From Escherichia coli (lineage in GTDB: Bacteria > Pseudomonadota > Gammaproteobacteria > Enterobacterales > Enterobacteriaceae), in the NCBI RefSeq assembly GCF_045037415.1, contig NZ_CP173438.1: 64,000 bases of DNA; one strand, given 5' to 3'. Below, in pieces: positions 39,130-45,100 of this stretch. The position numbers are program-made. Numbering within the stretch: the first letter of the stretch is position 1; every line of letters begins with the position of its first letter.

Positions 39130-42100
39130 CATTGCCTTAATCTCCGCAAAGATAACCTCGTCATTCCGGACATTCTCTGCCAGGCATATGTCGATGTAAT
39201 CCATAAACGATTTCAGCTTAACCCTTTTGTGGCCGGTCTTTCTGGCTGGCGGTTCAGGGGATGTTTTCTGGTTATCGTGTACCACAAAACTGGGATATTG
39301 CCCCGATAGTCACATTTCAGATTGATCGCGGTCTGAAGATGTGGCACTGAGGTAACGTGCTGGTGTCACTGGTATTGCTGAAGTTATGGTTTTTCGGGGT
39401 CAGGTGAGCCTGTTGTGTGTATGCTTTTTGTTCAGATCAGAGGGGGGCTGTGCGGACAGCGGCTTTTGTCTCCGGGCATTCACGCCTGAACGATGAATGC
39501 GATTTTCAGCAATATTTGTCTTTGTGACACTCTCTGGTTGAGAAGCTAATGCGCGCCCCTGTTTCCACAGAGAATGAGGCTTGCCATCAGCCGAAACATC
39601 AGTATTCCACGCCATACAGACGGCGCCTGACCATGTGCTGATGCAGGTAAAATGTTTCAACTACAACTGTTCGGGTTGCTATGCAACGAAACAGCGATTC
39701 TCACGATCTTTAACTGCAACGTTTTTCCGCCTGAAAGCTGACTGCCTCCTGCTGAGGTGGGAGGCTATGATTCAGTGCGTTTATAGTCTCCGGGGTATGC
39801 ATGTACCGGAGCATACCATTTCTGGTGGATAACAAGCCGGCACATTCAGCCTGCAGTGAAGATGGAGGCACCTGGTTGTGAAGAACGTTTCTGCCCGTGG
39901 CTGCTTCGCATCATCAATGGTATTCATACCCGCTCAGAAATGACCGGGTGCTGAAGCCCTCCGTTATCGCGCAGTATAATGACGTATATGATCTGTGGAC
40001 GAGTGAGCGGCGTGCCTGATGTACGCCGCTATTACTGTATTTTACCACAGGGCTGGTTTTCTGCTGCCAGCCCTGTGGTTATCAGACATCAACTGTGAGC
40101 GGCATCAACCGATGTACGGTATGCCATAAGCACGTACTGATCCATCAGATTTGTCAGTGGTTCACTCTGACCCTGACGTGCAATGATCCATTGCTCCAGA
40201 TCTTTTTCTGATTTGTGTTTCAGGTTTTTCGTCCAGTCGTCAAGGCTGTTTCCGGTCATTAAGTCAAGCCAGCAGAGCCAGACCAGTTTGAGACGTAACT
40301 CCGTGCCGCCAAACTGACGGAAGAGGCTGATCAGTTTGTTTGCCAGAGAATGTTGCTTCAGGCGCTCACATTCAGACAGCAGGATCCCTTCCAGCATCGG
40401 ATGATGAACCAGCAGGTGTTCGCTGGTGCATAAATTCACCACCAGATCATCATCCAGGGACGGGGAGCTCCGTTTGTCCGGACCATAAATCAGCCGGTGC
40501 AGACTCTGGGGAACGATGGCAATCTCCGGTTTTTCGCCATTGAATGACACCCACCCGGGCGTCAGATTATGGAAATAGTAGATATTCGGATGACACACGC
40601 CCCATGATACGGCGTGCCGGGTGAAGCCGGTCAGCCATTTCTGGTAGTTTTCATGGAGCAGCTCGTAACGGGTCTGATACTGTTGTTTCATTTTCATATT
40701 CCTCACGGGGGATAACAGGCAGCAGAGCGCCGCCGGCAGGCCGGAGATTGCGTCTGCTTTGGGCGAAGGGTTAGTGGTTAAAAATTACGGACGGGACTGT
40801 GCAATACGCGCCTGCAGCCAGGCTTCCACTTCACTTTTCAGCCAGCGGGAGCTGCGCCCCATTTTGATGGGGGCAGGAAAGCCCCCAACTTTGATGAGTT
40901 TGTAAAACCACTTATCGGTTAAGCCGGTCAGTTGAGTGATAAACGCCATGTCGACCATCTGGTCATCCATCAGCGAAACTGGGGTAGCCATGAGAATGTT
41001 CCTCCGGATGTTGTTAAACCAGCCGGTGTGGTCATGAAAACAGCGCGCCACCTTCACCGGCATAACAACCGGGGAGAAACGTAAAAAATAATCGGGAATC
41101 TGGCTGTCCGGAGATAAACGGGGGGATTGCGATGGCAGAGCCGTAGCGGAATCCCGGGGGGTGCCCCTATTAAGTTGTCAAGCATGTTATGACGCCTGCG
41201 GGGTATAAAAAGTCCCGTCGCGCATCATGGCGAACAGAACGTCGCAGCGTCGTCTCGCCAGGGCGATAAGCGCCTGATTGTGTCGTTTTCCCTGACTCAT
41301 TTTGCAGGTGTAGTAAGCCCTGGAGAGCGGATCCCTGAGCGCGGCGAAGGCCGACAGGAACAACGCCCGTTTGAGAGCTTTATTACCCCGTCGCGAGGGA
41401 TGCTCACCGCGTATTGACGAGCCGGATCGCCGAGTTACCGGCGCAAGGCCAGCATAAGCAGCGAGATGTGCGACAGAGGCGAAGGCGCGGCAGGCGACCT
41501 CGGTGAGGAGTCTGGCTGCGGTCCTGACACCGACTCCGGGCATACTGGTCAGGACCGGGTAAAGAGGGTGAGCAAGAACTCGCTGTTCTACCGCAAGCGC
41601 CACCTCGTCTCTTTGCTTACGCAGCGTGATGAGCTGGAGTGCCAGACGTGGCAGTACTACGGCAGCGGCATTCGTGCCGGGAACGACGACGGTTTGTTCG
41701 GCCAGTGCCTGAGCTATGTCTGCTGCAAGGCGTTTACCCAGACGAGGCGCAAGTTTGCAGAGCTGGGCTGCCAGCTTCTTCTCACCCAGCGAAGCGAGTT
41801 TTTCTGGTGAGGGATATCGCTGGAGAAGATCGAGTACCGCCGGGTGATCAAGTCTCGGACCGAGAACGCGCTCCAGTGCCGGATGTATCTGGGTCAGAAG
41901 GCCGCGGATACGGTTGCTGGCCTGCGTTGTCTGTGCGGCAAGATCATCATCGAAGCCGCAGAGCATGGAGAGTTCGGCGATTTGCTCGTCAGCCAGTTTC
42001 AGCGTGCGTAGCGCGTGAGGCAGGGTACGGGCAGCTTCGGCAATGATGGCAGCGTCACGAGCATCAGTTTTAGCTTCACCGGCGTGTAAGTCGGCTATGC

Positions 42101-45100
42101 GGCGCATGGCCAGTCCAGGGAGGTATCCGACAAGGACTCCTTCTGAGCGGGCAACGGCGACAGGTAACGCACCGATGGTAGCTGGCTGATCAACAACCAG
42201 CAGTATCTGACCATGTTGTTTCAGGTCAGATATTAGCGACCTGAGTTTGTTTTCGTCGTTGGGTAATGCTTTATCGAACAGGCGTTTACCTGAACGATTA
42301 ATGGCTACAGCGTGATGCGTATCTTTACCGACATCAACGCCGATAAAGACCTGGACGGATTCGTAATCGCTGGATTCGGTCATTCTGTCTCCCTTGTATA
42401 TGGGTTAAGCAGATAACCACGGGGAGCAGGTACCGGCATCCACGTTACAGACGGTCCCGGCAAAAGTGCCTGACCTGACCCCTATTAGCGGTTACCAGCG
42501 CCCCACCAGACCCGGTGACATCACCCCCCGGATCATGGACGACTGGGGGCAGTAATCATGCCGGGTCTGGCTGGCTAACACCCCATTATAAGGGGTACGA
42601 ATAAAGTAACGGGGGTGCGAAAAGATGCTTCCGCACGCACGCGCGATAAAGAGGGGATAGTTTTCGTGAGGACAGGGAGAGAAGCAGGCGTTCTGATAAT
42701 TGCAGAGTTGTTTTCGGAGGTGGTTACAGTGAGTCAGCCCGTTCCTGGCGAGCAGGAGACTGATATCACCGATGGGATAAGGTTGTCTGATTGGTATTAT
42801 AAATATAAGAAGTCATCAGAGAGTAACGTAAAGGATTTGCCAGAATAACCTAAGAGAGTAAATCTCTCCGGTAACAGAGCGCTGTGAAGCATTCTGTATC
42901 AGAGTGCAAATACATGAACGCTGATGCGTAAAATCAGCAGTGACACGCCAGCTCCCCCTATGCCCATTCCTGTATAAGACATGAACTGAGCGTATTAATG
43001 CTCCTGCCCTGAGACTGAGCCGGTGAGTGAGGGGCTGAGAAATCCCTCTTGACACTGCTCTAACCAGAAATACTTCCCCGGTTGTTGCGGTGCGTCCGGA
43101 TCCCCGATAACGGAACACTAAGGCTGTATTGCGGGACACCAGGTAAGTGGCAGCCCGTAATACGTCAGGAGACGCGGGAAAAGTGAATTCCCACACGCGT
43201 TATAAACTTACCCTTGCGGAGCTGGAAGCCTTTAACTCTGCCGTTGACAACCGGCTGGCAGAACTGACCGCAAATTTTACGAGTGCGTGCTGGCTTCAGT
43301 CTTGTCACCTGAGCGTTCGGTAACGGAGGCGCGGGCGGTAATAGACTGATTTTCAGGTATTACCGGCTTACGGCGTGTGGTTGATATTGAGGGGCTGTGA
43401 GTTTCGCGTATTTGTCAGAAACCCAGACGAGTTTTCCTGTATGGGACGAAATAAGGCAGCGGCAATACCTGGAAAAATTTAATATGGTATGAAGGAGAAC
43501 CTGTCGGTTACGCTTAATATACCCGGTACACTGTCAGCTCAGGGGATACATGAACCGTTATCTCACCAGCTACACAGTATATACACACTGACGCTGACAG
43601 TAGTCAGCAGGACCACAATAATCAGTGCCAGCAGTATGGTAACGATACGGTCTGTATTCCGGTAATAGCCGAAGGGGTCGACAGAACCACAATACGGGCA
43701 ACACACTGTATTATGAGTAATCGCGTTTCCACAGTCCCTGCACTTCTTTTTGCGTATCACCATCACTCCCTCCTCACAGCCTTACCCGTAACCGGTTTTT
43801 TACATTAAAAAAACAACGCTGAAAATTCAACCGTCAGTCCGGAGACGACCGTTCGGGTTATCACAGAGTGCCTGAGACAGTGCCCTGCCGGAGGTCACTT
43901 CAGGGACTCTGCGCATTTTTTACGACGTGGCTATTCCGTATGAACCATACGGAGATTTAACCATGACCTACAAATACAACCCCTTCTGGCAGCAACGTAT
44001 TCGTGAGACAGTGCGGCACGCACTGAATGTTCATCCCCGCCTGACGGCATTGCGGGTTGACCTGCGTTTCCCGGATGTACCGGCAGCAACGGACGCAGCT
44101 GTGATATCCCGCTTCATCAATGCCCTGAAAGCCCGAATCGACGCTTACCAGAAACGTAAGCATCGGGAAGGTAAACGCGTGCATCCCACCACTCTGCATT
44201 ACGTCTGGGCCCGGGAGTTTGGGGAGTGCAAAGGTAAAAAACACTATCATCTGATGCTGCTGGTCAACCGGGATACCTGGTGTCGTGCCGGTGATTACCG
44301 CGCTCCGGGATCACTGGCCGGAATGATTGAACAGGCCTGGTGCAGTGCCCTGGGGGTGGATGCCGGATGCCATGCCACGCTGGTGCATTTTCCGGCCTGG
44401 CCGGCGGTGTGGCTGGCGCGTAATGATGACACCGGCTTTCAGCAAGTGCTGGAACGTGCTGACTATCTGGCGAAGGAGCATACCAAAGCTCACTGCACCG
44501 GTGAGCGCAACTTTGGCTGCAGTCGTGGCTGAGCCAGACAGACGAGTTATCTGACTTCAGTGTGATGACGTGTTCATGGCCACCACACTGATTTTCCCTT
44601 ATGAGACTGAACTGAAACCGCCATTCACACCTGACCACGCTGCCCGTACCGGGACGGCTGTTGCCTGCGTGTCGTCTGACGGTAAGGAACATATACTATG
44701 TACGCAAAATCCTTTCTCGCTCTTGATAGCAACGGACGTCTGACGGGCGCCCGTACTGTACAGGCCGCACCTTATGCTCACTACACCTGCCACTTGTGTG
44801 GCAGTGCACTCAGATACCATCCGCAATACGACACTGAACTTCCCTGGTTTGAACACACTGACGACAGGCTGACAGAGCACGGTCAACAGTGCCCTTATGT
44901 CAGGCCGGAGCGCAGAGAAATACAGTTGATTAAACGTCTGCAGCAATTCGTACCGGATGCCTTACCCGTGGTGCGTAAAGCCAGCTGGCACTGCAGACAA
45001 TGTCACCACGATTATTATGGGGAGCGGTACTGCACACACTGCCAGACCGGAGGATTCAGTATTCCCCGGACAACTCAGGAGGAAATATGCGAATTCTGAA

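Follow-up and report, generated by a model that had tools for sequence, protein, structure and literature searches.

An ISEc20 copy upstream of an AlpA-family gene in Escherichia coli and the bridge RNA predicted in its left end

Within a 64,000-nucleotide stretch of Escherichia coli DNA (contig NZ_CP173438.1 of NCBI RefSeq assembly GCF_045037415.1; the whole stretch is called the window below), a mobile element of the IS110 family lies on the minus strand, upstream of a small gene of the AlpA family (Table 1). The element consists of a non-coding left end (LE), an intact gene for a DEDD/serine recombinase and a very short right end (RE), and on the element strand both of its borders adjoin runs of C. 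We read it as an intact copy of ISEc20, a member of the IS110 group, whose LE is predicted to encode a bridge RNA of about 176 nt, a reading to which we assign a probability of roughly 0.85.

Table 1 Features of the ISEc20 locus, with positions in the window
Feature	Coordinates	Strand	Basis
Whole ISEc20 element, 1450 bp	41162..42611	-	First base of right donor arm (CGTTAC...) through donor core CA at right end
Left end (LE), 228 nt, non-coding	42384..42611	-	ORF scan, six-copy block, orthologue alignment
IS110-family DEDD/serine recombinase gene, 398 aa, intact	41187..42383	-	ORF, Pfam, NCBIfam, IS621 alignment
Right end (RE), 25 nt 3' of stop codon, CATGCTTGACAACTTAATAGGGGCA	41162..41186	-	Orthologue comparison, junction sequence
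-35 TTGACA in RE	41176..41181	-
Left-donor ATAGGGG in RE	41164..41170	-
Proposed donor core CA in RE	41162..41163	-
Proposed -10 TACTTT in LE, promoter complete only on RE-LE joining	42603..42608	-	Modelled junctions
Predicted bridge RNA, ~176 nt	42421..42596	-	5' end inferred from -10; 3' end is end of covarying donor-loop stem
5' stem-loop ACCCC UUAUAAU GGGGU	42580..42596	-	In minimum free energy fold
Target-binding stem-loop; outer stem 42561-42571 with 42505-42515	42505..42571	-	Pair counts
Left target guide (LTG) candidate, CUGCCCC+CA	42544..42552	-	C5 block invariant in 62-64/64 orthologues
Right target guide (RTG) candidate, AUCCGGGGGG+UG, reverse complement of CA-CCCCCC-GGAT	42522..42533	-
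Donor-binding stem-loop; outer stem 42490-42504 with 42421-42437; apical hairpin	42421..42504	-	Pair counts
Left donor guide (LDG), UAAUAGGGG(U), equal to RE top strand TAATAGGGG(C)	42478..42487	-	Covariation with RE
Right donor guide (RDG), GUAACGUG, reverse complement of CA+CGTTAC (last 2 RE bases, first 6 LE bases)	42441..42448	-
Left target half, C4 on element strand, adjoins LE; holds the target's own 'core' bases CC	42612..42615	-
Right target half, C6 on element strand (G6 on +), adjoins RE	41156..41161	-
AlpA-family helix-turn-helix gene, 68 aa; neighbour downstream of element, same strand	40785..40991	-	Pfam Phage_AlpA E 1.1e-6

The recombinase gene had been recognized from the sequence in an initial annotation as encoding an IS110-family DEDD recombinase of 398 aa, and this assignment is borne out by matches to the Pfam families DEDD_Tnp_IS110 (PF01548, E 1.4e-48) and Transposase_20 (PF02371, E 1.4e-20), by a score of 234 bits against the NCBIfam model NF033542 'IS110 family RNA-guided transposase' (curated cutoff 140), and by the ISEc20 label in RefSeq. 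An N-terminal RuvC-like DEDD domain is joined to a C-terminal Tnp domain bearing the catalytic serine, as in the IS110 family generally, and residues D17, D65, D107, D110 and S320-G321 align with D11, E60, D102, D105 and S241-G242 of IS621, the second acidic residue being D (D65) where IS621 has E (E60). By megablast, the same 1.9-kb stretch is present at 99.8–99.9% identity in 824 complete E. coli genomes, ST131-type strains and Nissle 1917 among them; all 824 have it inserted at exactly this point, and RefSeq there calls the product 'IS110-like element ISEc20 family transposase'. Several ISEc20 copies per genome occur, and the element is G+C-rich relative to its E. coli surroundings. A diverged relative is found in O157-type E. 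coli genomes (megablast matches H49/H50), 87.7% identical over query positions 596–1615, LE included; it is annotated 'IS110 family transposase' and adjoins an ISL3 transposase.

The borders of the element follow from its other insertions. When the window copy is compared with five further E. coli ISEc20 copies, one each in an rtcB-family gene, yfaS and a zinc-ribbon gene and two at transposase-rich sites, one common block remains and all flanks differ. On the element strand all six copies start with CGTTACTTTATTCG and end with CTTAATAGGGGC(A), C runs lie on both sides, and partial megablast matches stop at query positions 157–159 and 1614–1618. Checked in this way against six copies and against empty sites, the boundaries take in the structured flank 5' of the gene. 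The interval first given for the element, 41187–42640, has to be corrected at both sides: it starts at the end of the stop codon and leaves out the 25-nt RE (to 41162), and its last 29 nt (42612–42640) are flanking chromosome. The lengths of LE and RE give the copy the long-LE/short-RE layout of the IS110 group. No inverted repeats are visible by eye, no repeat search having been run, between the ends CGTTACTTT... and ...AATAGGGGCA, and a target-site duplication is not readable among C runs of variable length on both flanks.

Empty sites contain a C/G tract before any insertion, GATCA-C8-ACGG in yfaS and GACTG-C9-GCG in rtcB, which identifies the tract as a pre-existing target and not as a product of the element. 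Its length varies between strains. In rtcB it measures 9, is interrupted, or exceeds 60, in yfaS it measures 7 or 8, and in empty alleles of the alpA-side locus it is absent or reads C6, C7 or C14. An attempt to fix the crossover by comparing junction C counts with empty sites failed on this polymorphism at all three loci, and the homopolymer flanks leave the ISEc20 crossover position ambiguous by 1–3 nt. Looking at the alleles individually, those upstream of alpA (L002, L008–L011) read absent (GGGTGGTTGTTG), G6, G7, GGAGGGGGG or G14, and they also differ by small AC/CA repeats beside the tract. Those of the rtcB-family pseudogene (L093, L094, L095) read G9, GGGGGTGGGG and, in NZ_CP148289.1, more than 60 G, all three genes being annotated as frameshifted; on the element strand the interrupted one is CCCC-A-CCCCC, and this looks like either a perfect target for a CA core or a scar left by excision. 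Unoccupied C/G runs of 7–8 nt lie in the window at 1579–1585, 17885–17892, 45458–45464 and 46908–46914, the third of them inside a zinc-ribbon gene, and in another strain (L005) an ISEc20 copy lies directly beside a gene with a similar annotation, 'putative zinc ribbon protein'.

The LE had been described as some 250 nt of structured flank lacking any open reading frame (ORF), and apart from its length, which is 228 nt, this description holds. No ORF of 40 aa or more occurs on either strand of 42384–42614, the G+C content of the flank is 59% against 49.6% for the window, and its minimum free energy (MFE) of -98.3 kcal/mol (z = -2.54) is equalled by only 3 of 200 shuffled sequences. Part of the MFE fold, at window positions 42384–42420 (-), is a hairpin in which CUCCCC pairs with AAGGGAG, the ribosome-binding site of the recombinase gene; it has no obvious conservation in orthologues.

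Conservation could be followed well beyond E. coli. A scan of one genome per species supplied 80 orthologous loci with recombinases 71–93% identical to that of ISEc20, mostly from Burkholderia, Paraburkholderia, Duganella, Cupriavidus and Microbacteriaceae/Micrococcaceae (Betaproteobacteria and Actinobacteria), and their upstream flanks share 70–82% nucleotide identity with the ISEc20 LE over about 180–200 nt. Among loci L012–L091, recombinases 71–81% identical and left ends 70–82% identical between Betaproteobacteria and Actinobacteria point to transfer across phyla.

An alignment of 64 left-end sequences (A2) was used to test the structure. The RNAalifold consensus contains 49 pairs, and compensatory double changes occur at 19. 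For the statistics we counted a named structure made up of a 5' hairpin, the outer stem of stem-loop 1, and the outer stem and apical hairpin of stem-loop 2, with pairs between guide segments marked apart. In this structure 94.8% of cells are paired, as against 38–53% when the partners are slid by 1–3 columns, and the covariation score is 0.267, as against at most 0.086 for slid partners; values as high as these do not occur in any of 500 shuffles. In the outer stem of the target-binding loop (helix 2), 98.4% of cells are paired and 7 of the 15 pairs are changed on both sides, and that of the donor-binding loop (helix 5) has 11 pairs, 95.6% paired, 7 of them with double changes. Double changes are also seen in four of five pairs in each of helices 9 and 10, and in four of five pairs of the 5' stem-loop (helix 1), in which 74% of cells are paired because the length of the hairpin varies in the alignment.

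To search with this structure independently of the copy in question, we built a held-out covariance model, R1, from 55 orthologues (alignment A3), with the window and one enterobacterial metagenome-assembled genome excluded. In the window, R1 gives a single strong match, at 42421–42610 on the minus strand (182.3 bits, E 1.9e-43), and one secondary match of 16 bits on the opposite strand of the same palindromic region, over the target stem-loop. The five other E. coli copies are matched with the same score, and the one empty locus searched, L002, is not matched. Structure prediction and covariance searching, which the initial annotation had put forward as checks, thus yield conserved covarying stems and a strong held-out match, with Rfam contributing none (see below). 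G-U pairs predominate at several positions (GU in 51 of 64 sequences at 55:132, UG in 61 of 64 at 72:115), and together with the 16-bit score of the opposite strand they point to an RNA on the recombinase strand.

The conserved segments that never covary as stems (helices 3, 4, 7 and 8) are those that match DNA. The LDG repeats the top strand of the RE and changes along with it: guide and RE both read ATAGGGA in Duganella, Rugamonas and several Microbacteriaceae (at least 9 loci, two phyla), and both read ATAGAGG in five Arthrobacter and Paenarthrobacter loci. The donor loop is complementary to both sides of the RE-LE joint, and the LDG covaries with the element at two positions, in at least 14 loci. 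The RDG, as the reverse complement of CACGTTAC, is invariant and hence gives no covariation test; its GTAACGTGG is the same in all orthologues but one, and CGTTAC begins the LE in all. In the target loop, the 5' side reads CUGCCCCC(A) and the candidate RTG on the 3' side carries a G6 that fits the modal C6 after CA at right junctions; the right junction of the window copy, GGGG-CA-CCCCCC-GGGATT, matches the RTG at 10 of 12 positions. Complementarity of the target guides to the C tract is clear, and both partners are near-invariant, without room for a test by covariation.

Natural junctions agree with a C tract as the target. The left flanks at 68 distinct LE junctions all end in a C run, and nearly all of 54 distinct RE junctions abut one, which, with the C8 and C9 of empty sites, amounts to the sequence-specific insertion typical of the IS110 group. 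After CA, the C run at right junctions is most often 6 (21 cases) and then 7 (11 cases) long. The two bases that follow ATAGGGG at right junctions are CA in 51 of 54 and CC in 3, and the two that precede CGTTAC at left junctions are CC in 62 of 68, CT in 5, CG in 1 and never CA. In IS621, strand exchange begins with the top strands, which are cleaved directly 3' of the core (PMC11208158). Under that rule, a donor core CA and a target core of C followed by any base would produce exactly this asymmetry, and yfaS fits in full: the target GATCA-CC-CCCCCC-ACGG would become GATCA-CC-CGTTAC on the left and GGGG-CC-CCCCCC-ACGG on the right. Both 3'-side guides end in UG and the LDG usually reaches the C of CA, which suggests that the donor core is CA and that the right donor arm is CGTTAC. 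A core of AC, one base to the right, is the less probable alternative. A donor junction of several C's with a CC core within the run was considered and rejected: the promoter spacer would grow to 20–22 nt, the RDG would pair less well, and the natural junction at L037 (see below) looks different. At a few loci the right end is partly replaced by C's (ATAGGG+C9 in L012, ATAG+C13 in L031, ATAGG+C11 in L044, and GGGAC+C8 without A in L020), which could reflect aberrant recombination, slippage at the GGGG-CA-CCCC palindrome or assembly error.

Joining RE to LE in silico (...GGGGCA-CGTTAC...) creates a composite promoter. In 47 of 48 distinct orthologues the modelled joint contains TTGAC(A/G/T), a spacer of 17–18 nt and TAC(T/C)(T/A)T; for ISEc20 it reads TTGACA-17-TACTTT, with the -35 overlapping the stop codon of the recombinase gene, and three or four extra C's at the joint would spoil the spacing. 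In a single natural locus, in Cupriavidus laharis (L037, 2415–2445), the RE is followed directly by CGTTACTAC, the first 8–9 nt of an LE. Beyond CGTTACTAC this locus continues into a coding sequence resembling a C5-methyltransferase, has no second bridge-RNA match and may be a tandem or junction stub. The position of the -10, mirroring the IS621 layout, would set the 5' end of the RNA near 42596, at the base of the 5' hairpin, and its length at about 176 nt. Taken together, the covarying structure, the held-out match, the guide complementarity with donor covariation and the junction promoter argue in silico for the bridge-type RNA that the initial annotation had suspected.

By analogy with IS621, ISEc20 would act as follows. 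The element would excise as a circle, in which RE joined to LE (...TTGACAACTTAATAGGGG-CA-CGTTACTTTATTCG...) would build a sigma-70 promoter with its -35 from RE and its -10 from LE, and transcription from this promoter would yield the bridge RNA and then continue into the recombinase gene. Folded into a 5' hairpin and two stem-loops, the RNA would be bound by the recombinase; its donor loop would pair with the element's own junction, GUAACGUG with the top strand of CA+CGTTAC, and its target loop with a homopolymeric C:G tract, the 5' segment of this loop being (G)CCCCC(A) and the 3' segment GGGGGG-UG. Strand exchange by the DEDD/serine recombinase would then take place beside a two-base core, CA in the donor and C plus any base, usually C, in the target. 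Transcription of the RNA, its binding to the recombinase, the circle, the exact core and activity of the present copy are all to be taken as expected from the better-known element.

Several results weigh against this reading, or at least do not fit it smoothly. A search of Rfam release 15 over 40500–43500 at E up to 10 returned chance-level matches only (E 5–8, far under gathering scores), and a sigma-70 scan of both strands of the integrated element and the DNA around it detected no promoter. The C run 5' of CGTTAC has a mode of 3–4, shorter than the 5–6 expected from the left guide, and unlike IS621, where donor and target share the core CT, the proposed donor core (CA) and target core (CC) are not the same. 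Because tract length is polymorphic, the exact pre-insertion allele at the window locus is not reconstructable. Inspection of the junction table revealed no convincing covariation of the four variable bases 5' of the LTG C block with left flanks, nothing above the expectation for G+C-rich genomes, and in the same table the C/U position of the RTG shows no link to the base immediately beyond the tract. A single E. coli site, rtcB, does match ACTG exactly, which is anecdotal, and target recognition beyond the C tract is unsupported. Finally, the C5 of the LTG can base-pair with the G6 of the RTG, and the MFE and consensus folds both contain this pairing; free RNA may accordingly have a closed target loop, as opposed to the open loop of IS621.

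A different question is whether this particular copy is still mobile. It might be an inert relic, with RNA gene and recombinase intact by sequence, which we regard as possible though rather unlikely. The insertion is fixed in the 824 complete genomes at near-identity, which suggests clonal inheritance over repeated insertion, and the integrated state has no detectable promoter; on the other hand nothing is damaged in the ORF, the catalytic residues, the two ends or the guides, the R1 score equals that of the five copies elsewhere, and genomes can carry several copies. This alternative concerns activity, and it is compatible with a bridge RNA as the nature of the feature.

One could also speculate that the insertion matters mainly by rewiring the expression of alpA, through separation from its promoter or through read-through from the element. 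The gene, labelled 'helix-turn-helix transcriptional regulator' in RefSeq, lies on the same strand, and the RE ends 170 nt from its annotated start (ATG at 40989–40991) and 98 nt from an upstream in-frame ATG at 41063; the gap of about 120 nt given in the initial annotation agrees with neither distance. Between the recombinase stop and alpA, the only terminator-like site is a weak one at 41046–41062. In occupied and empty loci alike, however, scans upstream of alpA yield no promoter-like site with a sigma-70 consensus; the outward TTGACA of the RE meets CCCGGG at the -10 position, and the recombinase gene itself appears to be poorly expressed when integrated. We therefore consider such a role improbable, and the earlier suggestion that the alpA promoter was displaced or replaced is speculation, without support for or against it.

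Before 2024, the non-coding ends of IS110 elements were viewed as regulators of recombinase expression (cited in PMC11208160), and the LE could in principle be only a cis-regulatory leader affecting transcription, translation or RNA stability, without any part in the choice of DNA sites. The 3' MFE hairpin CUCCCC...AAGGGAG could mask the ribosome-binding site in such a leader, but it is not visibly conserved in orthologues, whereas the segments that are invariant and unpaired are exactly complementary to both element ends and to the C tract, and one of the guides changes with the RE in three orthologue groups, for which a leader offers no reason; we hold this explanation to be very unlikely. 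Least probable of all, by a small step, is that the palindromes function at the DNA level, for instance as hairpins or cruciforms that the recombinase binds as recombination sites: the region is indeed palindrome-rich, the weak reverse-strand match of 16 bits falls over the target stem-loop and the GGGG-CA-CCCC junction could itself form a hairpin, but the many conserved G-U pairs of the recombinase strand would be C-A mismatches on the other, the forward match scores 182 bits against 16, and the structures lie 40–190 nt inside the element, away from the crossover.

The bridge RNA proposed for ISEc20 closely resembles that of IS621, an E. coli element for which the system is experimentally proven (Durrant et al. 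2024, PMC11208160; Hiraizumi et al. 2024, PMC11208158), whereas ISEc20 is known here from sequence alone. Both belong to the IS110 group and combine a long LE with a short RE; the RNA measures 177 nt in IS621 and a predicted ~176 nt in ISEc20, and in both a 5' hairpin is followed by the target-binding and then the donor-binding stem-loop. The 5' side of each guide pair corresponds to the top strand and the 3' side to its reverse complement (for IS621, PMC11208160), RTG, RDG and LTG extend to the two-base core, of which LDG matches the first base alone, and the -35 in RE and the -10 in LE face each other across the circle junction, which for ISEc20 is modelled. The catalytic D, E/D, D, D and S-G align, although the recombinases, 398 aa in ISEc20 and 326 aa in IS621, are only ~25–34% identical over local segments. 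The differences lie in the cores and the guides: the proposed donor core of ISEc20 is CA where IS621 has CT, and its natural target core is usually CC; the target guides of the ISEc20 clade are near-invariant across phyla and would specify a homopolymer, rather than diversifying as in IS621; and the two target guides can pair with each other, unlike those of IS621. Members of the IS1111 group (IS4321, IS5075 and others) share the recombinase family and RNA-guided site choice (PMC11208160), but in them a long RE, 3' of the gene, holds the RNA, and there are sub-terminal inverted repeats of 7–17 bp, whereas ISEc20 has an RE of 25 nt and its RNA upstream.

Both the kind of system and this member of it are already known: ISEc20 is catalogued, the NCBI model bears the name 'RNA-guided', and in Supplementary Table 5 of Durrant et al. 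ISSfl4, of the cluster 'ISEc20;ISSfl4', is listed with 'Detected Bridge RNA End = LE' (PMC11208160). A coarser level of clustering (ISfinder; Supplementary Tables 1 and 5 of PMC11208160) groups ISEc20 with IS110, ISBma3, ISAar2 and others, which can be compared with the orthologues found here, annotated ISBma3-like and 71–81% identical to the ISEc20 recombinase. None of the six consensus bridge-RNA structures of Durrant et al. comes from the ISEc20/ISSfl4/ISBma3 clade (PMC11208160), and a literature search for these three names returned catalogue-type mentions only, with no description of guides or target. What the present analysis adds, all of it computational, is the boundaries of this copy, a predicted guide map, a probable poly-C:G target, a putative junction promoter and the CA/CC asymmetry.

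For the clade formed by ISEc20, ISSfl4, ISBma3 and their actinobacterial relatives, a more general proposal seems to us evenly balanced: that the target guides are frozen on a hypermutable C:G tract of ~9–10 bp, that the donor core CA is unlike the usual target core CC, and that the mutual pairing of the target guides might gate the RNA. If true, frozen guides would explain how Enterobacteria, Burkholderiales and Microbacteriaceae can share an almost unchanged element and RNA with no reprogramming, insertion would depend on the current length of slippage-prone tracts, and the retention of CA at the right junction with target bases at the left would be a natural readout of top-strand-first exchange. 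Poly-C:G targets are rare, slippage-prone sequences that are often linked to phase variation, and the natural junctions bear on how mismatched cores are resolved. For annotation purposes this is a routine mobile element, to be labelled as ISEc20 plus bridge RNA; the added value is modest, a testable guide map for a clade without a published bridge-RNA structure. The insertion is also a stable marker in the 824 complete genomes, beside the AlpA-family regulator of a genomic island.

The surroundings of the element contain two further features. At window positions 42615–42848 (+) a hypothetical ORF of 77 aa is annotated that starts with GTG at the junction with the insertion sequence; in an empty-site genome (L011, 433–699) the same ORF has 88 aa and spans the insertion point, and the element would thus have truncated its 5' end, if the ORF is real. 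On the far side of alpA, window positions 37349–39063 and ~39073–39260 comprise a copy of IS100 (IS21 family), with istA intact and an IstB-like ORF of 231 aa compared with 260 aa for the full IstB in the empty-site genome, and IS21 fragments that flank this copy, which indicates that the island has been reshaped by several insertion-sequence events.

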